The notes below the pieces were generated by a model. It did not search any database and was not told the origin of the DNA. It saw nothing but the letters and a program-made list of their open reading frames with translations. Position numbers and translations under genes: made by a program. Positions 2,704 to 61,876 of a stretch of DNA of 64,000 bases are shown piece by piece; position 1 is the first letter of the stretch, and each line of letters starts with the position of its first letter. Source of the stretch: a virus (taxonomy: Duplodnaviria; Caudoviricetes); the IMG/VR virus record IMGVR_UViG_3300028485_000001, positions 21,360-85,359 of that record, one strand, 5' to 3'.

Positions 2704-2997
2704 CCACCCCCGCAGGGCAGCAGCCCAGCCGAACGAAGGAGATCCGCATGAGCAAGCCCGTCCGCGTCGAGCTGATCGTCGAACACGACACCGCCGACAC
2801 CATCACCGACATCGTCGAGATCGACCGCGCCGAGTGGGACGAGATGACCCCCACCGAGCGCGAGAAGTGGTGCACCCAGGAAGCCGAGGAGCTGCGCGCC
2901 AACGTGTGCAGCAGCGGCTTCCAGGTCCTCGACGGCATCGACATCGACACCTGACCACCCAAGCAAGACAGCCCAACCGAACGAAGGAGTTCGCATG
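2701..2997 (+). repeat. Intergenic direct repeat, two copies
   Basis: TGACCACC...CAGCCCA(G/A)CCGAACGAAGGAG..CGCATG at 2701-2750 and 2952-2997. Confidence 0.75.
2748..2954 (+). CDS. Hypothetical acidic protein
   Basis: AAGGAG RBS; MSKPVRVELIVEHD... Confidence 0.6.
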   Translation: MSKPVRVELIVEHDTADTITDIVEIDRAEWDEMTPTEREKWCTQEAEELRANVCSSGFQVLDGIDIDT

Positions 2998-3276
2998 GCC
3001 ACCCTCACCGCCGCGCAGACCGCCGTCCTCGCCGACGTCCGCCTCCGCCTCGACGCCGCCGGGCTCACCGACCACCAGATCACCCCGCCCACCACCACCG
3101 CCCGCTGGACCGCCCACGACACCCGCTGGGGCACCACCGTCTACGAGGAGATCCCCGACCGGCCCGGTCACGCGTACTGCGTCCTCGCGGGCGACGAGCC
3201 CGTCGACGACCCCCAGCCCGAGGACGCCGCGCACATCAGCGACCTGGAGCGGATGGGTTTCGTCCGCGCCGCCTGA
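2995..3276 (+). CDS. Hypothetical protein
   Basis: AAGGAG RBS; MATLTAAQTAVL... Confidence 0.6.
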   Translation: MATLTAAQTAVLADVRLRLDAAGLTDHQITPPTTTARWTAHDTRWGTTVYEEIPDRPGHAYCVLAGDEPVDDPQPEDAAHISDLERMGFVRAA

Positions 3277-3361
3277 CCCCACAGCCCACGCCGCCCTACG
3301 GGGGCGCACCGGATCACGACCGGACGCGGGCACGCAGAACCACCGACCGAAGGAGACGCGC

Positions 3362-3625
3362 ATGGACCTCCCGCACACCTACAACGACGCCGACGGCAAC
3401 ACCCTCAGCGTCGACGCCGAACGCATCACCCTCATCGACGCCTACCGCATGAGCGACGAGATGACCTCCCCCAAGGGCGAGGACGCTGTCGATCTCGCCG
3501 AGGCCATCCTCGCCTCCGGGGCTCCGGACCACGTCGTCATCGCCAAGGCGGACCTCGCCGACGGAATGCGCGCCGCCCTGCGAGCCAAGGCCACTCCGGC
3601 TAACGACGTCGAGGCCGCGAAGTGA
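3362..3625 (+). CDS. Hypothetical protein, paralogue of 4273..4680
   Basis: AAGGAG RBS; shares LP..Y.D and P.G.DAVDLA.A.L motifs. Confidence 0.6.
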   Translation: MDLPHTYNDADGNTLSVDAERITLIDAYRMSDEMTSPKGEDAVDLAEAILASGAPDHVVIAKADLADGMRAALRAKATPANDVEAAK

Positions 3626-3801
3626 AGGCCCGTCGCCTCCGCCGACGGATGACCCTCCTCGACCACGGCCACCAGTTCCGCATCACCGCAATCCGTCGGA
3701 GCTTCTGGCGTCGCACCGTGGCCGCTCGGGGGTTCTACGTCCCCTCCGGAGCGCCCGGCACCTACGTCCTCAGCCCGAAGCACGACGTGGAGACCCAATG
3801 A
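3622..3801 (+). CDS. Small basic hypothetical protein
   Basis: GTGA overlap; 59 aa VKARRLRRRMTLLDHG...; absent from the ORF track. Confidence 0.4.
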   Translation: MKARRLRRRMTLLDHGHQFRITAIRRSFWRRTVAARGFYVPSGAPGTYVLSPKHDVETQ

Positions 3802-20930: not shown

Positions 20931-22886
20931 CTACAGGAGTGGTTCGACGGTGATGTGGTTCGGCAGGGACAGGTCGAAGTACGCGACGCTGCCGGAGGTG
21001 ATGCGGTAGTTGGGTGTGAGCGTGTACGTGGCGTTCCCGTTGAGTAGGAACGTGTCCGCGAACATGGTCTGTTGCGACGACCCGAACCCGGCGCCAGCCG
21101 AGCGGATGAACGCGCACCGTTTCAGCGACGCCGCCATGGTCCCGCCGGTCGACAGCCGGAAGCCCACCGCCAGCGAGGACGCGTCAGAGGCGTTGTTGAG
21201 ACCGGACAGGGCGATGGTGATACGGGTCCGGCCCGACCACGACGTCTTGAACGTGAAGGCGGCCCAGGTGCCAGACGGGAAGTCGTAGAACGGGGTGCCC
21301 ACGCTGTACCCGGTGAGCTGGGTGGTGAGTTCGTCCCGGATCGGGGAGTGCCGCGCCGCCGCGAAGCTCATCGTGGACGCCAGCTCCACCACGCCATCGG
21401 CGGGGTCGCGGGTGTCCGTCTGCATGTTCCACTGCTGCTGGAACATGTGCCGGGCGCCGCTGTACGTCATGCGCGTGTACGGCCGCTCAGGGCGGGCGCC
21501 CTCGGTGTGCAGCATCGCCCGCTTGCCGCGCTCCGGCCCCTCCCCTGACGCCCACGCCGGGCCCTGGACGGACGTGGCGGCGATGTCGGAGGCGTAGCGC
21601 TGCGTGAAGATGTACCCCGACCCTTGCGTGTCGCTGGGATCGGCGGCGGGCGGGGGCGTCAGCAGGATCGACGAGTGGTCCGGGAGCGCACGGATCCGCA
21701 CCTCCGACCCCGACCCCGATGACCACGTTCCGGACGCGTCACCGGAGGTCACCGAAAGGGTGGAGCTGGGCTGAGCGGCCGAGTTCGCGGCCGAGCGGAG
21801 GAGCAGGTACGCCGTGGTGTCGGTGGCCGTGCCACGCACCATCGGTTTGCCGTCGGCGGTCTGTCCGGAGCTGTCCAGGGCGAAGATCACCTGGGTGGCC
21901 GTGGCTGCGAATCCAGCGAGCGGCGATGACGGATCACCGATGTTGGATGCCGCGAGGAAGTTCGCCTGGTCCGCGGTCGCGCCGAGGCCAGCCTGCATCG
22001 TGCCGACTCGGACCCGGTTGACGACCCCGTTCGGGACCGCCTCGATGGCGCCCGTCGGCCCTGGCGCTGTACCGATGGAGAACCGGCTGCCGGTGATCTC
22101 GCTGGCGACGATGTCTCCGGAGAACACGGCGTTGCCTGCGCTGTCCACGGCGAAGATGAGTTCGTTGTCCTCGTTGTAGCCCCTGAGCCCGTCTTCGTCG
22201 ATCTCGACCCGGGCGGCCCCGGGGATGCCTGCGATGAGGGTGGTAGCGAGCACGAGGACCGCTTCGAGCTTGTCGGCTTCCACGGCCCCCGCCTGGATGT
22301 GGACGGCTTCGATGCTGTCGGCTTCGAGGTCGATCCCGGATGTCTGCAACGGCGTGGCCGCGACCTCCGCTGACGCCTCACCCTGCACGCCCCCAGTGGT
22401 CACGGGGACCATCACGACGTAGTGCGGCACGTAGGGGAGCGGCACCACGGGGAGCATGCCACCATCACCCGCTCGGCGGATCGACCCGACGTAGGTTGCG
22501 GCCGACGGAGTGAAACCGCTGCTCGTGCTGACGTGAACGGCCATGTGGTCGAAATCGACGGGGATCGCGGGGTCTCCGTCGAGGAGTCCGTCCCACGTGA
22601 CACGGAGGCCACCGAGCGACGGGGTCACGGTCGGAGCGGTCGGCGCGGACACAGGGTCGCCGCCGATGGTGACGGGGCCGACCCGGCCGTCCTTCCACCC
22701 CCACTGGCCTCGCAGTGCACCCGTGTCGTCGCGGACCTCGATGCTCTGCCCCTCCTCCAGAGAGGAGTTCGCGAGCTGGTTGCCGCGCTGGCCGCGCTTG
22801 AGGGTCGTCACCTCAGCACGGAGCTTCCCGACCTCGCGGGCGTACTCAGCGATCGCGCGGCGAGTCTCAGCGTCCACGTCACGCAC
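20931..22886 (-). CDS. Minor tail / receptor-binding protein
   Basis: 651 aa; FN3-like PTAPTVTP..GGLRVTWDG; IEAVHI/VEADKL repeats; last tail gene. Confidence 0.75.
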   Translation of the reverse strand: MRDVDAETRRAIAEYAREVGKLRAEVTTLKRGQRGNQLANSSLEEGQSIEVRDDTGALRGQWGWKDGRVGPVTIGGDPVSAPTAPTVTPSLGGLRVTWDGLLDGDPAIPVDFDHMAVHVSTSSGFTPSAATYVGSIRRAGDGGMLPVVPLPYVPHYVVMVPVTTGGVQGEASAEVAATPLQTSGIDLEADSIEAVHIQAGAVEADKLEAVLVLATTLIAGIPGAARVEIDEDGLRGYNEDNELIFAVDSAGNAVFSGDIVASEITGSRFSIGTAPGPTGAIEAVPNGVVNRVRVGTMQAGLGATADQANFLAASNIGDPSSPLAGFAATATQVIFALDSSGQTADGKPMVRGTATDTTAYLLLRSAANSAAQPSSTLSVTSGDASGTWSSGSGSEVRIRALPDHSSILLTPPPAADPSDTQGSGYIFTQRYASDIAATSVQGPAWASGEGPERGKRAMLHTEGARPERPYTRMTYSGARHMFQQQWNMQTDTRDPADGVVELASTMSFAAARHSPIRDELTTQLTGYSVGTPFYDFPSGTWAAFTFKTSWSGRTRITIALSGLNNASDASSLAVGFRLSTGGTMAASLKRCAFIRSAGAGFGSSQQTMFADTFLLNGNATYTLTPNYRITSGSVAYFDLSLPNHITVEPLL

Positions 22887-35412: not shown

Positions 35413-36252
35413 CTAGAGGAGGTGGTTCAGGCGCCCGTCAGCGTGCGCCTTCGCGATCTCGTCCGGGGACATGGATTCGAGCTGCTCACGTGTGATCGGC
35501 TTGGAGCCGCCGGGGGAGTTGAACTCGCCGCCGGAACGCTTGGGAGCAGGGGGCTTGGGCGGATCCGCTGGCGCGGGCGCCTTCGCCTTGAAGCGGTCGT
35601 TGGCTTCCACCTGGTCGGTGATGGCCTTGCTCAGCCGGTCGTTGAAGTCCGCGGCGGTGGGGTCCAGCCCCTCTGCGGCGCGCATGAACGAACGGGAGTC
35701 GAGCAGTAGGTCGGCGCGCGCTTCGTGTGCGCCTGCCGCGTGGTACACCGCGAGTTCGACCTGGCCGCGCCGCGCTTCCGCCTGGGAGGCTGCGAGCTTC
35801 CGGGTGAGTTCGTCGGGGTCGGGAGGGGTGTCTTCCTGCTTGAGGCCCAGCGCCTTGGCGATGGCGTCCATCTGTGCCTGCTGGCGCTTCTCGGAGGCGT
35901 CGAGCTTGTCCTCCAGCTCCTTCGCGGTGGTCCGCCTCTCGGCGGCCTCCTCGCGGAGCTTCTTGACGTAGTCCTCACCGAAGGTCTTGGGCTCCGGGCC
36001 CTTGCCCTTCGACTCGGCGTCGCCCTTGGACTCCTGGGGCAGGTGGTCGCCACTGGGAGCCGCCGGGGGCTGAGCGCTGCCGCCGTCTCCGCCCTGTGGA
36101 GTGCCGCCGGGGGCCGGGTCGCCGTCGGGGGCGCTCGGCTTGGGGTCGGGGTTCGGGTCGCCTTCGCCGGATCCACCCGCGATCAGGTGGATCGGTCGGC
36201 CGTCCTTGCGGTAGCCGATGAGGGACCCGGGGGTAGAGGTCGAATGCATCAT
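35413..36252 (-). CDS. Capsid scaffolding protein
   Basis: LIGYRKDGRPI..IAGG, DYVKKLREEAAERR, DLLLDSRSF. Confidence 0.8.
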   Translation of the reverse strand: MMHSTSTPGSLIGYRKDGRPIHLIAGGSGEGDPNPDPKPSAPDGDPAPGGTPQGGDGGSAQPPAAPSGDHLPQESKGDAESKGKGPEPKTFGEDYVKKLREEAAERRTTAKELEDKLDASEKRQQAQMDAIAKALGLKQEDTPPDPDELTRKLAASQAEARRGQVELAVYHAAGAHEARADLLLDSRSFMRAAEGLDPTAADFNDRLSKAITDQVEANDRFKAKAPAPADPPKPPAPKRSGGEFNSPGGSKPITREQLESMSPDEIAKAHADGRLNHLL

Positions 36253-37898
36253 GAGGAGCCCTCCCGGGGCTTCTTGGTGGAATCCGGCTCCTGGCCGGAC
36301 GTGGATCCACCCGCCACCACACGGGGGCGGGAAGTCTGATCGCCGTGTTCCTCGGCATTGGCGGCGTCACCGGACACCATGAGCTGCGCCCACGCGTCGC
36401 CTTGCCGGGCCAGCTCCTGGTCCTCGGCGGACAGGCGCACCAGCTCGGCCTTGACGTCGGTCTCGGACGCGTTCGGGCCCAAGAACATCTGCACCAACGT
36501 CTCCCGCGACGCCATACGCGCATCAGCCATGAGCTTCACGGTCTCCGCGATCTGCCGCGTGTCGCGGGTCGCCGCATCCGGGAACATCACCTGCGGACGC
36601 TGCGGAACGAGCCCCTGCGCGTCGAAGATCTCCACGTCCAGGTGCAGGAGCGCCTCGGAGAGCTGGGCGATGCCGGGCCGCCAGTACAGGACCTTGTCGC
36701 CGCGAGTCGCCAGGGAGCGTTCCTTGCGCGAGTTGATCTCCGTCGCGGTCGCGGGTCCGCCGTCGGCGTCCATGGCCAACGATTCGAGGCTGTACCCGGC
36801 GCTGCGGACGATCTGCTTCGTCAGCGCCTGCGCCGTCGCCTCATGCTCGGCGTACCGGATCGCGAACTGCACCTGCTCGATCCGACCCGAGGTGCCGTCA
36901 TCCACGGGGATGTTCAGCGGCGAGAACAACTCCTGCTCGGAGTTGAATGCCGCGCCCTGGCCGCGGCCCTGCGAGCGCAGATACGACTGCGGAACCACCA
37001 GGCGGGCCTTGCCCAAGCGGATGTCGCGCATCCACGACGACCACGTCTCATCAAGGGCATCCAGCTCCCCCTCACACCCGGCGATGTCCGCCCGGCCAAG
37101 ATTCGCGGCCTGCGGCAGATGCCTCCACACCCGGTTCGGGCGCATGTTCGGGATGTACGCCGCCGTCAACGGCACCGCGCCGGACAAGGCGACGTGGTCG
37201 CCGTCCGTCAGCAGATCAGCGAGCGCTCGGGTGTCGTCCACCTCCGTCAGCGGGACCGTCATACCGAGGTCGTCACGGGTCCCACGGTGCAGACTGTGGC
37301 GGATGAAACCCCGCTCGTGGCGCTCCAGATGGCGGAACACCGTCCCCTGGTCCTCCACGACCACCCGGTGGAACGTCACCGCACGCAGACGGTCATACGA
37401 CCACTCCGGGATCGCGGCATCGGCGTGCACAGCGGCGATCCACGGCCGGTCAGCCACATCCTCATCCCACACCGTGCGCAGGAACACCCCACCGAGGGCG
37501 CCACCGAGCTCCGCACCCTCGCGCAGGCCGGCGAGCATCGAGTCGTCCATGTACTCGGCCAGGCGCTCATCCGTGGCCTTGTGGCCGGTGGTGATCCGCG
37601 GCGGCGACGAGAACAGCAAGGACGCGCCGACGCCGGCGATGTCAGAGGCGAGGGGGATGTGCAGGCGTGCGGGCCGCTGCTCAGCGGGAGTGTCCGTGCC
37701 CCAGAACCACCGGTAGATCGAGTGCGCGATCCTGCCGCGGCCGGGGTTGTGGTTGTCGGAGAACCCGGGGGAGCGCCCGTGCGCGCCCCCGTACACGGCG
37801 GCGAGGTCGTCGGGGTCACCGGAGTACCAGGCAGACCAGATGGCCTGCCGGTCGAGGATGGGACGCAGGTTCTCCGGGGGCCACTGGGTGACGGACAC
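36249..37898 (-). CDS. Portal protein (SPP1 gp6-like)
   Basis: 549 aa after the terminase; WSAWYSGD, LHIPLASDIA, LDETWSSWMRDIRLGK. Confidence 0.88.
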   Translation of the reverse strand: MSVTQWPPENLRPILDRQAIWSAWYSGDPDDLAAVYGGAHGRSPGFSDNHNPGRGRIAHSIYRWFWGTDTPAEQRPARLHIPLASDIAGVGASLLFSSPPRITTGHKATDERLAEYMDDSMLAGLREGAELGGALGGVFLRTVWDEDVADRPWIAAVHADAAIPEWSYDRLRAVTFHRVVVEDQGTVFRHLERHERGFIRHSLHRGTRDDLGMTVPLTEVDDTRALADLLTDGDHVALSGAVPLTAAYIPNMRPNRVWRHLPQAANLGRADIAGCEGELDALDETWSSWMRDIRLGKARLVVPQSYLRSQGRGQGAAFNSEQELFSPLNIPVDDGTSGRIEQVQFAIRYAEHEATAQALTKQIVRSAGYSLESLAMDADGGPATATEINSRKERSLATRGDKVLYWRPGIAQLSEALLHLDVEIFDAQGLVPQRPQVMFPDAATRDTRQIAETVKLMADARMASRETLVQMFLGPNASETDVKAELVRLSAEDQELARQGDAWAQLMVSGDAANAEEHGDQTSRPRVVAGGSTSGQEPDSTKKPREGSS

Positions 37899-38016
37899 GA
37901 AACCCCCTCAGTTCACGGTGTGTAGTTGTATGAGCAGGGACGACAGAACACCGCAGTCGGTGATGGTCACGGAACGCAAACAAGGCGGGGTGGTGGCCCC
38001 GCCTTGCTCGAATGCT

Positions 38017-40275
38017 TCAGATGGTCAGGTCATGGACGGGATCACGCAGGTCCCACCGCCACTCGTGATACGTCGTCTTGATCCCGTAACGGAGGGAATC
38101 GCAGTTGTGGACGAGCACTCCGCTCGCGAAATACTCCGGGCAGTCAGCGACCGTGATGTTCCAAACGGGATGACGCCCTGGCACTTCGGTCACGGCGAGC
38201 ACACGAACGCCCGCAATACCGAGTTCGGCTGTACTTGTTGGCATGGAACGTGTCCCCGCAGAAACCGCACTCCCGAGGGACGTCATCGACACCAGAGGCT
38301 CGGCGCCACGCTGATTTGCAGGCGTTCGAGCAGAACCGATCCTCCGGGCCTCGGGATCGGGTGCTGTAGTTCGTTGAACACTGGTCGCAGGTCTTGGTGA
38401 TGGCCTCGCGGCCTTCCCAAGTCCGCTTCCCGTGTTCGGAGTGCCATGCCCGTCCGGCGTCAGAACGGTGCCACGCGGAGGCCAGTGGTCGAACGCTGTC
38501 CAAGTGGGCGAGCCGCCACGGGGTTCGGTAGTCGGTGAGCCTGGCGTGGTGTGCCAGGTGTTCGTCTGCGGTGATGCACACGAGGTTGCCCGGGGCGTTG
38601 TTGTTGTGGTCTCCGTCGGAGTGGTGGATGTGATGGCCCTCAGGAATGGATTTCCCGTGAGTGTGCATCCAGATCTCTTCGTGGAGACGCTTGACGCCTC
38701 GCTGGCGGTCTCCGATTCCGGGCGTGTAGTAACGCTGCTCGGAAAGGCCCTTGGCGTCTGGGTATCGGCGGAACTTGACTCCGTTGAAAACGATGACTTC
38801 GACACGCTTTCCCATGCCACCATTTTATCCGCGTACCGGAGTGAATCCAGACGAATCCACCCTTCCCCGTCAACCCAGACAGGATGATTCCCGGTCCCGA
38901 TGAACTCCCGCCCATTCGACAGCTCAACCCGTAAAACCTTCGCTGAGGCGCTAGAAAGCCCGGAATCGTCCACGGCCTTCCAGCCATCCCGAGTCAGCAC
39001 CCGGTCGCCAGGGCGAACGTCCTCGATGGGACGCTCTCCGCCTTCAGTCAAGACCGGAGTCCCAGCGACGAAGCAGGCATGGTCAGCTTCCTTGACCGGG
39101 GCGTCCTCGCCCTTCGCCGTGGCCTTCTCGTCCCACGAGTACGACGGCATCTCATCGATCAGGTGCGTGCACGAGGCGTGGATCTTCAACTGGCCACCAG
39201 CGAGCAACGACGACACCAGCCGGATCCCATCCGCGACGCTGTTGTCCCCCTTGCGAGGATCCAGGCCGTCATCGTGGAGCTGCGTCCACATCGACGCCGC
39301 GGACGGGTCGATGACCGTCCACTCGGGATGCACACCCACGCCCCCCGTGCCCGGGACAGGCACGTTGCCGAGCCACTCCCGCAGGTACTCCGAGTACAGG
39401 ACGTCGGTCAACTGGCGCTTCTTCGCCCGCGCGTCCCAACGCCACTCCGACGTGGCGTAAAGGATCCCGTCCGAGCCGAGGCCGAGCAGGGTCGCGTGGA
39501 AAGGATTCACGGTGCCGTAGTCAATTCCCAAGGCCACCCAACGGCGGATCACCGGCAGGTCCGACACGATGTGCCAGTCCGGATCCCACACGTCGAACAC
39601 GCTGCCTTCGCCAGCGATCCATTCCCCGGAAATAAAACGGCGATGCCAAAGACCCACATACTGGGCTTTCAGCCGCTCAGCGAACCCCTCCGGCAACCCC
39701 GGATTGTCGTCCAGGGTGAAATGCCAGTGCCGCATCCCGATTTCGTCGGCGCGCAGTAGGTAGTCGCGGCGCAGCCAGTGTGCCGGAGCATCCGGGTTTG
39801 TCGTGGCCAGGAGCTTCGCGCCCTCGACGCGCAGCCGGGACAGCATCATCGCCCAGAACCCCTGCGGGAGCAGAGTCGCCTCGTCGGCGTAGGCCAGGCA
39901 GATCGTCGACCCGCGAATCCGACCCTCGGAGCGGGCGTCGTTCGCACCCACCAGGTGCACCGTCCGCCCCAAGATCGACGCCGTCGTGCTGCCCTTGGTG
40001 TGGTGGATGTGCTTGGTCAGGTCACCGAACAGCCGCTCATCCTGCAACACGTCGATCAAGTTCCGCTCGATCGTCTGCAACGTGCGGCCGCACATGACGA
40101 TCAGGCCAGTACGAGGAGCGCGCGCCACCAGGATGAGAAACGCCAACAGCGACGCGACGGTCTTGCCCGACGCGACCGCACCTGACCACAACGCGATCTG
40201 AGGAGTCTCCAGAGCACCAGCGATCGACCGAACTTGGATCGGCGACATAACCGGAGAGAGCCGAGACAGATCCAC
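38017..40275 (-). CDS. terL: Terminase large subunit precursor containing an intein (428 aa after splicing)
   Basis: Walker A GAVASGKT, Walker B AYADEA, TTNP, GIDYG; splicing restores DHACDSLRY. Confidence 0.92.
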   Translation of the reverse strand: MDLSRLSPVMSPIQVRSIAGALETPQIALWSGAVASGKTVASLLAFLILVARAPRTGLIVMCGRTLQTIERNLIDVLQDERLFGDLTKHIHHTKGSTTASILGRTVHLVGANDARSEGRIRGSTICLAYADEATLLPQGFWAMMLSRLRVEGAKLLATTNPDAPAHWLRRDYLLRADEIGMRHWHFTLDDNPGLPEGFAERLKAQYVGLWHRRFISGEWIAGEGSVFDVWDPDWHIVSDLPVIRRWVALGIDYGTVNPFHATLLGLGSDGILYATSEWRWDARAKKRQLTDVLYSEYLREWLGNVPVPGTGGVGVHPEWTVIDPSAASMWTQLHDDGLDPRKGDNSVADGIRLVSSLLAGGQLKIHASCTHLIDEMPSYSWDEKATAKGEDAPVKEADHACFVAGTPVLTEGGERPIEDVRPGDRVLTRDGWKAVDDSGLSSASAKVLRVELSNGREFIGTGNHPVWVDGEGWIRLDSLRYADKMVAWESVSKSSFSTESSSADTQTPRAFPSSVTTRPESETASEASSVSTKRSGCTLTGNPFLRAITSTTPTETTTTTPRATSCASPQTNTWHTTPGSPTTEPRGGSPTWTAFDHWPPRGTVLTPDGHGTPNTGSGLGKAARPSPRPATSVQRTTAPDPEARRIGSARTPANQRGAEPLVSMTSLGSAVSAGTRSMPTSTAELGIAGVRVLAVTEVPGRHPVWNITVADCPEYFASGVLVHNCDSLRYGIKTTYHEWRWDLRDPVHDLTI
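38104..39075 (-). mobile_element. Class-1 intein, 324 aa, in TerL
   Basis: C1 CFVAGTPV at residue 401, block B TGNHPVW, block F/G VWNITV...GVLVHN ending at 724, +1 Cys. Confidence 0.9.
38144..38815 (-). CDS. HNH homing endonuclease nested out of frame inside the intein
   Basis: RLHEEIW...IPEGHHIHHSDGDHNNNAPGNL...EHLAHH; two CxxC...CSxxC zinc repeats; TAAAAT-N6-ATG. Confidence 0.85.
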   Translation of the reverse strand: MGKRVEVIVFNGVKFRRYPDAKGLSEQRYYTPGIGDRQRGVKRLHEEIWMHTHGKSIPEGHHIHHSDGDHNNNAPGNLVCITADEHLAHHARLTDYRTPWRLAHLDSVRPLASAWHRSDAGRAWHSEHGKRTWEGREAITKTCDQCSTNYSTRSRGPEDRFCSNACKSAWRRASGVDDVPRECGFCGDTFHANKYSRTRYCGRSCARRDRSARASSRLEHHGR

Positions 40276-40296
40276 CCGCCCACCCCCTCCCCGCGG

Positions 40297-40824
40297 TCAT
40301 CCGTCGGACGGGGCGGACTCGACACCGTCCAAGGTCTGCGCGGCTTCGGAGAACACCGAACCGAGCCGGTCGAGCATGGACGCCGCATCCGAGGACGCCC
40401 CAGTAGTGTCGACCGCCGCGATCTTCAGATGCTTGTCGAGGGCCACCGCCGACGCGGTCATCAGGTTGCGGAGGTCACCCGTCGGCGCCCGTTCGAGCAC
40501 GGCCTCGTTGTAGGTGTTCTCTTTGCCGCCGAACGAGAAGACGAGGTGCGGGTCGTCCATCTGGTCCAAGAGCTGATGGGCTTTGCGGAGGTACTTCTCG
40601 GAGACCTCAGCTCGCAACGCGGCGAGGTCGGCCTGACGCGCACGCGTGGCCTTTTCAGTACCCTCGCGCGACCATGCGTCGGTGATGCCGTTCTCCTTGG
40701 CGACCTTGCGGACCATGTTGTCGCTGACGTCGTGCCGCGCGGCTATGGCTCGTGTAGACCCGACTTTGGCTTGGATGTCAGCGAGGATCGCGGCGCGCTT
40801 CTCATCACTGATCCGTCTGACCAC
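40297..40824 (-). CDS. terS: Terminase small subunit (putative)
   Basis: N-terminal HTH (STRAIAARHDVSDNMVRKVA); directly upstream of terL. Confidence 0.7.
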   Translation of the reverse strand: MVRRISDEKRAAILADIQAKVGSTRAIAARHDVSDNMVRKVAKENGITDAWSREGTEKATRARQADLAALRAEVSEKYLRKAHQLLDQMDDPHLVFSFGGKENTYNEAVLERAPTGDLRNLMTASAVALDKHLKIAAVDTTGASSDAASMLDRLGSVFSEAAQTLDGVESAPSDG

Positions 40825-40912
40825 AATCCGCTCACCTCCTGCCGTACCGTCTCGCCCTGGTGCACACTGGTGTCCCGTCGCCCGCTCCGACGCCCCCTAC
40901 CGGAGGTGTGTC

Positions 40913-41311
40913 GTGAGGTCGTTGGTGTGTGCTGCTGTTGTCGCGTTGGTCGTGTCGGGCTGCTCGGGTGGCGTCCCCGTGGAGGAACCGTCTCCGTCCC
41001 CGTCTGAGGCTGTCGTGGAGTCCCCGACAGCGTCCCCGTCGGTGGAGGTGGACCCGCAGTCCGCGAAGTGGATCTGTGAGGATCTGCGGATGCGGGACGT
41101 CTACCTGCAAGCCGATGACCTTGCCCCGCATGAGGAGGGGTCGGCCTACGTCGCAACGGTAGACGCATGGCTGGGGGCCCTGGAGGAGGACGCGGAACCG
41201 GCGTTGCGGGAGATCGCGGAGGCGGCGGTTGATGCTGAGGGTGCGGCGGAGGAGATGATCGCGTGGTGTCAGGAGAACACTGAGCCGATCAATCCGACGT
41301 CGCCGTGGTGA
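40913..41311 (+). CDS. Lipoprotein (moron)
   Basis: GGAGG RBS; lipobox VSGC; Pro/Ser linker; opposite strand to neighbours. Confidence 0.7.
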   Translation: MRSLVCAAVVALVVSGCSGGVPVEEPSPSPSEAVVESPTASPSVEVDPQSAKWICEDLRMRDVYLQADDLAPHEEGSAYVATVDAWLGALEEDAEPALREIAEAAVDAEGAAEEMIAWCQENTEPINPTSPW

Positions 41312-52832: not shown

Positions 52833-53339
52833 CTAGAGAGTACGGACGGTTCGGAGTAGGTGTTCCCACGCGGGGAGTCGGGACTCGTAGGGGGCGTCGT
52901 GGTCGTAGACGAGAGTGACGGCCGGGATCGACGCGAGGGTGTCGAGGCTGCGACGAAAAGCCGGATGCGACGCGAGCTGGGGTTTGCAGTGCGGGACCAC
53001 GACGGTGGGCACGCCGTAGCCGACCATCTCGCACAGGAGCCCAACCGCGAAGGAGTCGGCGTTGCCCTGCGCGAACTTGTTCACCGAGTTGAAGGTGAGA
53101 GGGCAGGCGAGCACGGCGTCGGCGGGCGGAGACCCTTCGCCTTCTCCGGGCATCCGGTACTCGGTGCGGACGGGCGCCCCGGTGAGCTGGACGAGTTCGG
53201 CGGTGTCGTGGAAATGCACGCCCATAGGGGTGGAAAAGCACACCACACGCCAGCCGTCACCCTGGAGGAGCCGGACGAGCTCGGGGGTACCTTCGGGGGC
53301 TGGTGCGCCGGAGAGGACGAGGTAGAGGGTTTTCGCCAT
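52833..53339 (-). CDS. HFCD-family flavoprotein (EpiD/PPC-decarboxylase fold), leaderless
   Basis: LVLSGAP, STPMG, ACPLTFNSVNKFAQGNAD; TACACT-N6-ATG. Confidence 0.8.
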   Translation of the reverse strand: MAKTLYLVLSGAPAPEGTPELVRLLQGDGWRVVCFSTPMGVHFHDTAELVQLTGAPVRTEYRMPGEGEGSPPADAVLACPLTFNSVNKFAQGNADSFAVGLLCEMVGYGVPTVVVPHCKPQLASHPAFRRSLDTLASIPAVTLVYDHDAPYESRLPAWEHLLRTVRTL

Positions 53340-61642: not shown

Positions 61643-61876
61643 ATGGACAGGCAGAGGGAGACCATGAAGCAAGCAGCCGAGGACTACGGCACCGCCAAGG
61701 AGACACTCGACGAGGCGCGCGACGCCATGCGAGCAGCCATCGTGGACGCCCTCAACGCCGGGATGACCCCAACGGAGGTGAACGCCCTGTCTCCGTTCAC
61801 GCCGGCGTACAACCGGAGGATCGCGGAAGGCGCGGGGGTGGCGCCACGGCCGAAGGGGCCAAAGAAGGCGTCCTGA
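61643..61876 (+). CDS. Small coiled-coil/HTH regulator, leaderless, homologue of 2169..2390
   Basis: EARD...ALNAGMTPTEVNALSPFTPAY. Confidence 0.7.
   Translation: MDRQRETMKQAAEDYGTAKETLDEARDAMRAAIVDALNAGMTPTEVNALSPFTPAYNRRIAEGAGVAPRPKGPKKAS

Follow-up and report, generated by a model that had tools for sequence, protein, structure and literature searches.

An HNH endonuclease gene nested out of frame in an intein of a phage large terminase: a putative composite selfish element

Results

The large terminase gene (terL) of a tailed phage is interrupted by an intein, and the DNA of this intein also encodes, on the same strand and in another frame, a complete HNH endonuclease. The gene lies on a 64,000-nucleotide stretch of the IMG/VR virus record IMGVR_UViG_3300028485_000001 (positions 21,360 to 85,359 of that record), which we call the window and by which all positions below are numbered unless another locus is named. 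We propose that the intein and the nested gene form a composite selfish element in the nuclease motif of the large terminase, in which the HNH homing endonuclease is translated separately, and we put the probability of this at about 0.8. The case is built on the anatomy of the locus, homology, predicted folds, frame-specific substitutions, conservation of the layout and start signals. An earlier reading of the DNA, made without database searches (the sequence-only reading), had suggested that the homing endonuclease is a separate, out-of-frame gene within the intein; homology, fold prediction, frame-specific substitutions and a layout conserved across phyla now speak in its favor.

The terminase intein

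The intein of the terL open reading frame (ORF) has the residues expected of a class-1 element at both of its ends, and its boundaries are those given by the sequence-only reading (Table 1). Cys1 directly follows the DHA of the divided nuclease motif, the terminal His-Asn is followed by Cys+1, and the block-B Thr-x-x-His is found as T-G-N-H at residues 61-64. In an alignment of eight related inteins Cys1, the block-B His64 and the terminal Asn324 are invariant. The long ORF matches the Pfam profile Hint_2 (34.1 bits, cut-off 28.4), while the Intein_splicing profile stays under its cut-off (22.5 against 35.8). Subtraction of the 324-residue insert leaves a terminase of 428 residues. This product aligns colinearly, at 59% identity, with the TerL of Streptomyces phage Austintatious, which has no intein and whose corresponding site reads DDHS/VDALRY without interruption (here and below, a slash marks an insertion point). 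The phage TerLs nearest to that of the window have no insert. A megablast search of a phage collection with the terL gene gave no match, and relatives came up only at the protein level. Judged from its sequence the intein looks splicing-competent, and splicing of terL is predicted from the intact motifs and the essential nature of the gene.

In the AlphaFold model, intein residues 1-80 and 291-324 are rich in beta structure, with a predicted local distance difference test score (pLDDT) of 63-88, whereas residues 81-290 have no secondary structure and a pLDDT of 20-30. The sequence-only reading had described the center of the intein as Ser/Thr/Pro-rich filler lacking an endonuclease motif, and this description holds for about 205 residues: Ser, Thr and Pro make up 45.6% of residues 87-290, for which no Pfam match was found. 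One short patch within the otherwise unconserved filler is conserved (G-T...H-G-T-x-N-T-E; positions 38330-38480 on the minus strand, and the homologous places in the related loci L009-L020). It is the shadow, in the terL frame, of a strongly conserved motif of the HNH frame, W-H-x-S-x-E-G-R-x-W-H.

The nested HNH gene and its product

The HNH gene begins 1460 nucleotides (nt) after the terL start, that is, at 2 modulo 3, and its stop codon falls at intein residue 310-311, between the C-terminal splicing strands, such that its last 20 or so codons overlap the C-terminal splicing region. The 752-residue and 223-residue ORFs are both present, and both frames are free of stops over 672 nt, as had been noted from the sequence alone. 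Synonymous-codon shuffling gives a probability of about 0.31 for a terL frame that stays open across the HNH gene of the window, which is not unlikely by chance because the guanine-plus-cytosine (GC) content is high. The HNH frame is supported by homology and not just by its openness: the 223-residue product matches HNH_3 (PF13392; E 5.6e-11, 42.4 bits, cut-off 24.8) and the HNH endonuclease family phrog_15471 (E 6e-41). HNH_3 is its sole Pfam match at E<=0.1, neither endonuclease VII (IPR004211/PF02945) nor PF01844 being reported at that threshold.

The product belongs to a family with 3220 cluster representatives at E<=1e-3, nearly all of them 205-230 residues long. All 18 positions that are invariant in a 57-sequence alignment of the family are kept in the protein of the window, including the His/Asn/His core and the eight cysteines of its two zinc repeats. 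AlphaFold, run with this alignment, models the HNH-frame protein with a mean pLDDT of 95.4. When the model was compared with representative structures by an all-against-representatives aligner, the best solved fold, and the sole match above Z 5, was the homing endonuclease I-HmuI (1u3e; Z 6.8, root-mean-square deviation 5.9 Å over 108 residues). A Foldseek search of the Protein Data Bank with the whole model gave no match at E<=0.001, and the modelled zinc modules weakly resemble the YacG and FCS zinc fingers (Z 4.2-4.6).

Table 1. Features of the terL locus in the window. Cys4, module of four cysteines; aa, amino acids.
Feature	Positions	Strand	Basis or remarks
Portal protein gene downstream of terL	36249..37898	minus	phrog_533, portal protein, E 3e-101
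terL precursor ORF, 752 aa	38017..40275	minus	ORF list; coordinates include the stop codon; Pfam Terminase_6N and Hint_2; PHROG terminase large subunit
Class-1 intein, 324 aa, in nuclease motif DHA/CDSLRY	38104..39075	minus	Cys401 to Asn724 of the ORF
Intein C-terminal splicing part, residues 291-324, ending ...GVLVHN	38104..38205	minus	AlphaFold strands 292-309, 314-317 and 320-323, pLDDT 64-82; conserved in alignment
Nested HNH endonuclease gene, 223 aa plus stop	38144..38815	minus	Third frame of terL, two bases further on
Two Cys4 zinc modules, C143/C146/C162/C166 and C183/C186/C201/C205	38201..38389	minus	All eight Cys invariant (57-sequence alignment)
Intein-frame filler, residues 87-290	38206..38817	minus	terL-frame readout of the HNH gene; predicted disordered
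HNH catalytic core, His64/His65 ... Asn73, Asn77 ... His86	38558..38626	minus	Invariant columns of the 57-sequence family alignment
Intein N-terminal splicing part, residues 1-86	38818..39075	minus	AlphaFold beta-rich, pLDDT 63-88 over residues 1-80
TAAAAT, -10-like hexamer 6 nt before the HNH ATG	38822..38827	minus	Sequence; no Shine-Dalgarno; leaderless-type arrangement
Small terminase candidate upstream of terL	40297..40824	minus	phrog_5536 and phrog_1206, terminase small subunit

The same nesting in other phages and prophages

The sequence-only reading had proposed a search for other inteins with an out-of-frame HNH gene. By tblastn and pattern scans, at least 15 further sequences of phages or prophages, independent of one another, were found to have the same HNH gene nested in terL. 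These include Tetrasphaera phage TJE1, Acinetobacter phage Highwayman, Rhodobacteraceae phage MD07 and Clostridium phage phiCDHM19, together with nine IMG/VR contigs, one Streptomyces prophage and one actinomycete metagenome-assembled genome. Their hosts cover Actinomycetes, Acinetobacter, Rhodobacteraceae and Clostridium difficile, and their GC content ranges from 31 to 70%. Relative to the HNH frame, the long ORF with the Hint domain is shifted one base further on in every nested copy. In the eleven copies whose boundaries are complete, the insertion point is this same nuclease motif of terL; the distance from Cys1 to the HNH start is 245-281 nt, and 4-55 nt separate the HNH stop from the end of the intein.

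In AT-rich copies the open terL frame has a low probability under synonymous-codon shuffling (P<=0.0005 in Highwayman, GC 0.39, and in phiCDHM19, GC 0.31). Of the two alternatives to the HNH frame, that of terL is by far the less stop-prone in all of the loci, which may be why this frame relation is the one seen. None of the 150 best of the 3220 relatives is an in-frame version of the HNH within an intein. The single long protein among these 150, P0123 (813 residues, actinobacterial), appears to be a frame-shifted copy and not a canonical intein: it runs from the TerL N-terminal part and the intein N-terminal part through about 50 residues of Ser/Thr/Pro-rich filler and then follows the HNH frame to the HNH stop, and it is probably broken.

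Two further loci depart from the common plan. In L012 (1512-3766) the frame of the terL N-terminal part and the intein N-terminal half stops 47 nt past the HNH start; the HNH gene (2971-3681) has its own frame, and the intein C-terminal half and the end of terL lie in a third ORF (3260-3766) with the usual relation to the HNH frame. This locus is either a natural split intein, that is, a fractured gene, or a frameshifted copy. The IMG/VR terL gene of L011 (104-3898) has two inteins, one in the Walker A motif (GPAG/C...HN/TGKS) and the other the intein with nested HNH at the nuclease site.

Relatives of the HNH gene are also found as free-standing genes. In Acinetobacter phage BP10 one lies upstream of the small terminase gene (terS), and in Lactobacillus phage CL2 one directly follows terL. 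A tree of 16 HNH sequences is mostly unresolved, but it groups the free-standing HNH of BP10 (L003:2495-3136) with the nested HNH of Highwayman (L002:2489-3133), with support of 90/94. This grouping is a hint that, within a single host group, the gene may have changed between the nested and the free-standing state. In Brochothrix phage BL3 (L006:2256-2387) a match to the last zinc module only, with 64% identity, lies across the annotated end of terL and gp3; it is possibly a remnant of the element.

Selection and mobility

To see which frame is under constraint, substitutions were compared in all three pairs formed by the window, L009 (a prophage contig of Nocardiopsis synnemataformans) and L025. 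When the overlap is read in the HNH frame, the differences at codon positions 1, 2 and 3 number 51, 46 and 93 in one pair, 58, 54 and 102 in another, and 66, 58 and 112 in the last; when it is read in the terL frame, the excess falls at position 2. The excess at third positions of the HNH frame has a chi-square p of 2e-5 to 5e-5 in the three comparisons; the sequence-only reading had put forward a frame-specific check of this kind, by dN/dS. Upstream of the HNH start, the intein N-terminal part read in the terL frame is dominated by third-position differences in all pairs (15, 11 and 40 for the window and L009). At the amino-acid level the HNH-frame products of the overlap are 61-67% identical, the terL-frame readouts 42-52%. 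These comparisons indicate that the selection acting in the overlap is purifying and is directed at the HNH frame.

The intein is also more alike than its surroundings. The intein N-terminal part is 78, 66 and 70% identical in the three pairs, the first value being that of the window and L009, against 47, 58 and 52% for the N-extein. This contrast, and the lack of the insert in the nearest phage TerLs, fit the pattern expected for horizontal spread, in which the element would move between diverged terL genes.

These data bear on the idea that the HNH is a former in-frame domain of the intein that two compensating indels, or errors of sequencing, have put out of frame and that now survives as a decaying relic. 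The high GC content of the window does ease long open alternative frames (the P of 0.31 given above), and broken variants exist, namely P0123, where the intein frame passes into the HNH frame midway, and L012, whose N-terminal half is in a separate frame. Nevertheless, the same frame relation recurs in the 15 or more independent sequences, which come from several phyla and sequencing projects; in-frame versions are missing from the 150 best relatives; every copy comes with a start codon and start signals of its own; and the HNH frame is under purifying selection with all of its catalytic and zinc residues intact. These observations contradict both decay and sequencing error, and we consider such an origin very improbable.

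Start signals of the HNH gene

The nested gene begins with ATG or GTG just before a conserved N-terminal strand in every nested copy, at the same place as in the free-standing relatives. In the window this start is preceded by the hexamer listed in Table 1. TAAAAT occurs twice in both strands of the window (128 kb), and TANNNT followed by six nucleotides precedes 0.43% of its ATGs. The TANNNT-N6-ATG arrangement is shared by four other actinobacterial copies, of which L009 (TAAAAT) and L025 (TACAAT) are close to the window and TJE1 (TACATT) and L010 (TATGCT) are distant. In copies from other hosts a Shine-Dalgarno core lies 4-16 nt upstream of the HNH start in six of eight cases (background 10%, P 2e-5), and four of those copies have TATAAT or TATGAT 22-33 nt upstream.

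Within the window TANNNT-N6-ATG is seen 6 times, where about 0.8 would be expected, and elsewhere in the window it precedes several plausible genes, which suggests that the phage uses leaderless transcripts more widely. With a spacing of 5-7 nt, TANNNT and ATG stand before ORFs of 50-168 residues at 53339, 51521, 12967 and 2390 on the minus strand and at 61643 on the plus strand.

The -10-like hexamer speaks indirectly for a promoter of the HNH gene's own, and the nuclease may, as the sequence-only reading had it, be made early, independently of late TerL. More tentatively, it is possible that the nested nuclease carries host-type expression signals that are re-fitted at each move to a new host group. 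In Actinomycetes these would consist of a leaderless -10 element at -12..-7, and elsewhere of a TATAAT-like hexamer and a Shine-Dalgarno site, which in part would share their bases with the codons of conserved intein residues (Arg-Tyr-Asn/Asp-Asp).

The start region also bears on whether the HNH could be produced by programmed -1 ribosomal frameshifting from terL, as a fusion of TerL-N, intein-N and HNH. Indeed, relative to terL the HNH gene is in the -1 frame, and both share a strand and probably one late mRNA. However, a stop closes the HNH frame three codons upstream of the ATG in the window. In the other nested copies such a stop lies 1-15 codons ahead of the start, with the exception of TJE1, where the HNH frame is open for 90 codons upstream. 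Copies with a nearby stop leave no room for a shift site, and the 9 nt available in the window contain no slippery heptamer. Shine-Dalgarno cores or -10 elements stand at the right distance from the start codons, and the free-standing relatives begin at the homologous residue. Frameshifting is accordingly hard to credit as the source of the protein.

The phage and its packaging genes

The terL ORF is part of a packaging module on the minus strand of the window, together with the small-terminase candidate and the portal gene. Outside the window the same virus record contains a large serine recombinase, a 733-residue open frame (locus L027, C1:13367-13672). The close relatives of the phage are prophages in Nocardiopsis and Streptomyces. 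This suggests a temperate actinobacterial phage, its temperate nature being indicated by the recombinase on the record and by the fact that its relatives are prophages.

Discussion

A composite element and its proposed mechanism

We propose the following course of events for the composite element. The 752-residue TerL precursor would be translated through the whole insert, and the class-1 intein, whose N- and C-terminal splicing halves are joined by an unstructured Ser/Thr/Pro-rich linker of about 205 residues, would splice itself out to give the 428-residue terminase. The DNA of this linker holds, in the third frame of terL, a free-standing-type, I-HmuI-like HNH_3 gene with two zinc modules, whose translation would start separately at the ATG at 38815. 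In actinobacterial copies the HNH would probably be made from a leaderless mRNA that begins 6 nt after the TANNNT -10 element, and in copies from other hosts a Shine-Dalgarno site within the coding sequence of the intein would serve its translation. When related phages meet in the same cell, the nuclease would cut or nick those of their terL alleles that lack the intein, and repair would copy intein and nuclease jointly into the new allele. Selection in the overlap would act on the HNH protein, and the terL frame there need only stay free of stops. Splicing, separate transcription, cleavage specificity and homing are the predicted steps of this scheme.

Several observations weigh against this account. 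The fold match of the HNH model to I-HmuI is modest (Z 6.8 with a deviation of 5.9 Å), and the excess of intein over extein identity is small for the window and L025 (66 against 58%), if clear in the two other pairs. With regard to the start signals, the actinobacterial copy L026 has just a weaker GATACT-N5, and the window, L009 and L025 are related, so that their common hexamer is partly inherited. A simple sigma-70 scan of 37800..41000 gave no complete -35/-10 promoter. The sequence-only reading had given the gene its own promoter and no Shine-Dalgarno site; of this, the hexamer 6 nt before the ATG, the lack of a Shine-Dalgarno site and the recurrence of this arrangement in four other actinobacterial copies stand, and the promoter is a putative one, based on the -10-like hexamer, a full -35/-10 pair not having been found by the scan. 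Finally, the free-standing relatives adjoin terminase genes, which would fit a role in packaging as well.

This last point leads to the alternative that the HNH is not, or is no longer only, a homing enzyme, and is kept for the benefit of the phage, either as a domesticated terminase helper (for example, for nicking in packaging) or as a prophage weapon against superinfecting relatives. In addition to the terminase-linked positions in BP10 and CL2, the serine recombinase and the prophage relatives imply that a host-type -10 element could be active in lysogens, and there are precedents for terminase-linked HNH proteins (Kala et al., 2014, as cited in PMC4422536). The protein of the window is, however, I-HmuI-like and of the HNH_3 family, and it has no match to PF01844. 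The brucellaphage gene that PMC4422536 connects with the proteins of Kala et al. belongs to that latter family. A position beside or within the target gene is typical of homing endonuclease genes too, and an insert that is absent from the nearest TerLs and more conserved than the exteins fits mobility. We therefore regard a packaging or defensive role as unlikely, though less so than decay or frameshifting, and favor the composite homing element.

Comparison with known systems

The sequence-only reading had allowed that related non-canonical architectures might already be on record, and this is so (Farlow et al., 2015; Gosselin et al., 2025; Phillips et al., 2026); the cyanobacterial dnaX case was first proposed by Gorbalenya (1998), as cited by the latter two, both of which are preprints. 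The locus belongs to this class of layout, in that a complete nuclease ORF lies between the splicing blocks, on the same strand and in another frame, and the intein frame is open and has no nuclease domain. It is a further case and not a new category.

Farlow et al. (2015; PMC4422536) described a brucellaphage terL with an intein and a nested out-of-frame HNH gene (Brucella phage Tb/Pr, Perisivirus, NC_019446, whose terL is annotated 'intein present'). As in the window, a complete HNH gene with zinc modules lies inside a terL intein, on the same strand and in another frame, with both frames open. Unlike in the window, the brucellaphage intein is in the N-terminal (ATPase) half of TerL and not in the nuclease motif; its HNH gene is one base further on than terL, where that of the window is two; and its HNH core is C-terminal, preceded by the zinc modules, and matches PF01844. 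The two HNH proteins have only weak local similarity, with E 2e-4 over the zinc modules. The brucellaphage case looks like an independent origin of the same layout.

In a preprint, Gosselin et al. (2025) reported 'endonuclease VII-like' genes in frame 3 of actinophage inteins, named the terminase large subunit among the four host protein types of inteins with non-canonical nucleases, and proposed that the arrangement arose when a free-standing nuclease gene invaded an intein. The strand, the relative frame (frame 3) and the unstructured intein-frame readout are the same as in the window. In contrast, their nuclease is assigned to InterPro IPR004211 (endonuclease VII) and that of the window to HNH_3 only, and none of their named phages was matched in a tblastn search with the nuclease of the window. 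Their survey was limited to PhagesDB, whereas the family described here spans phages of Actinomycetes, Proteobacteria and Firmicutes. We found no paper on this HNH_3 family as an insert in the terL nuclease motif, nor on its occurrence in several phyla.

The cyanobacterial dnaX intein of Phillips et al. (2026; bioRxiv 10.64898/2026.09.14.751524) carries an out-of-frame LAGLIDADG endonuclease, and its overlap is under purifying selection in the nuclease frame and relaxed selection in the intein frame. The overlapping frame inside the intein and the pattern of selection are those of the window; the host gene is cellular, unlike terL, and the nuclease is of another type. The nested gene is of the same family and length as the free-standing HNH_3 homing endonuclease genes of phages, for which I-HmuI (1u3e) is the structural reference and which have relatives beside terminase genes, but it has no intergenic space and is wholly overprinted on the intein. 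In the 'fractured genes' of Dassa et al. (2009; PMC2677866), a free-standing endonuclease gene lies between the halves of a split intein. Here too the place of the endonuclease in an intein is taken by a gene of the free-standing type, whose 3' end extends over the C-terminal intein part. The terL gene of the window is nonetheless a single continuous 752-residue ORF and not a fractured gene of that type, so one precursor and splicing in cis are expected; its relative L012 does look split.

Implications

The finding shows the hidden out-of-frame nuclease layout of inteins to extend beyond a few actinobacteriophages, to a large cross-phylum family at one terminase site that is maintained by selection on the nuclease frame. 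Gene callers miss such nested nuclease genes, and the inteins that carry them are misread as decaying or as mini-inteins. The overlap is also a natural case of a long unstructured linker that is tolerated within an intein, and the host-specific start signals, written into coding sequence, offer a testable example of a nested selfish gene that secures its own expression. If these signals are indeed of host type and re-fitted at each move, the nuclease would be made from the silent prophage in lysogens, independently of late terL, and could cut the terL of incoming intein-free relatives, which would lead both to spread of the insert and to exclusion of competitors.

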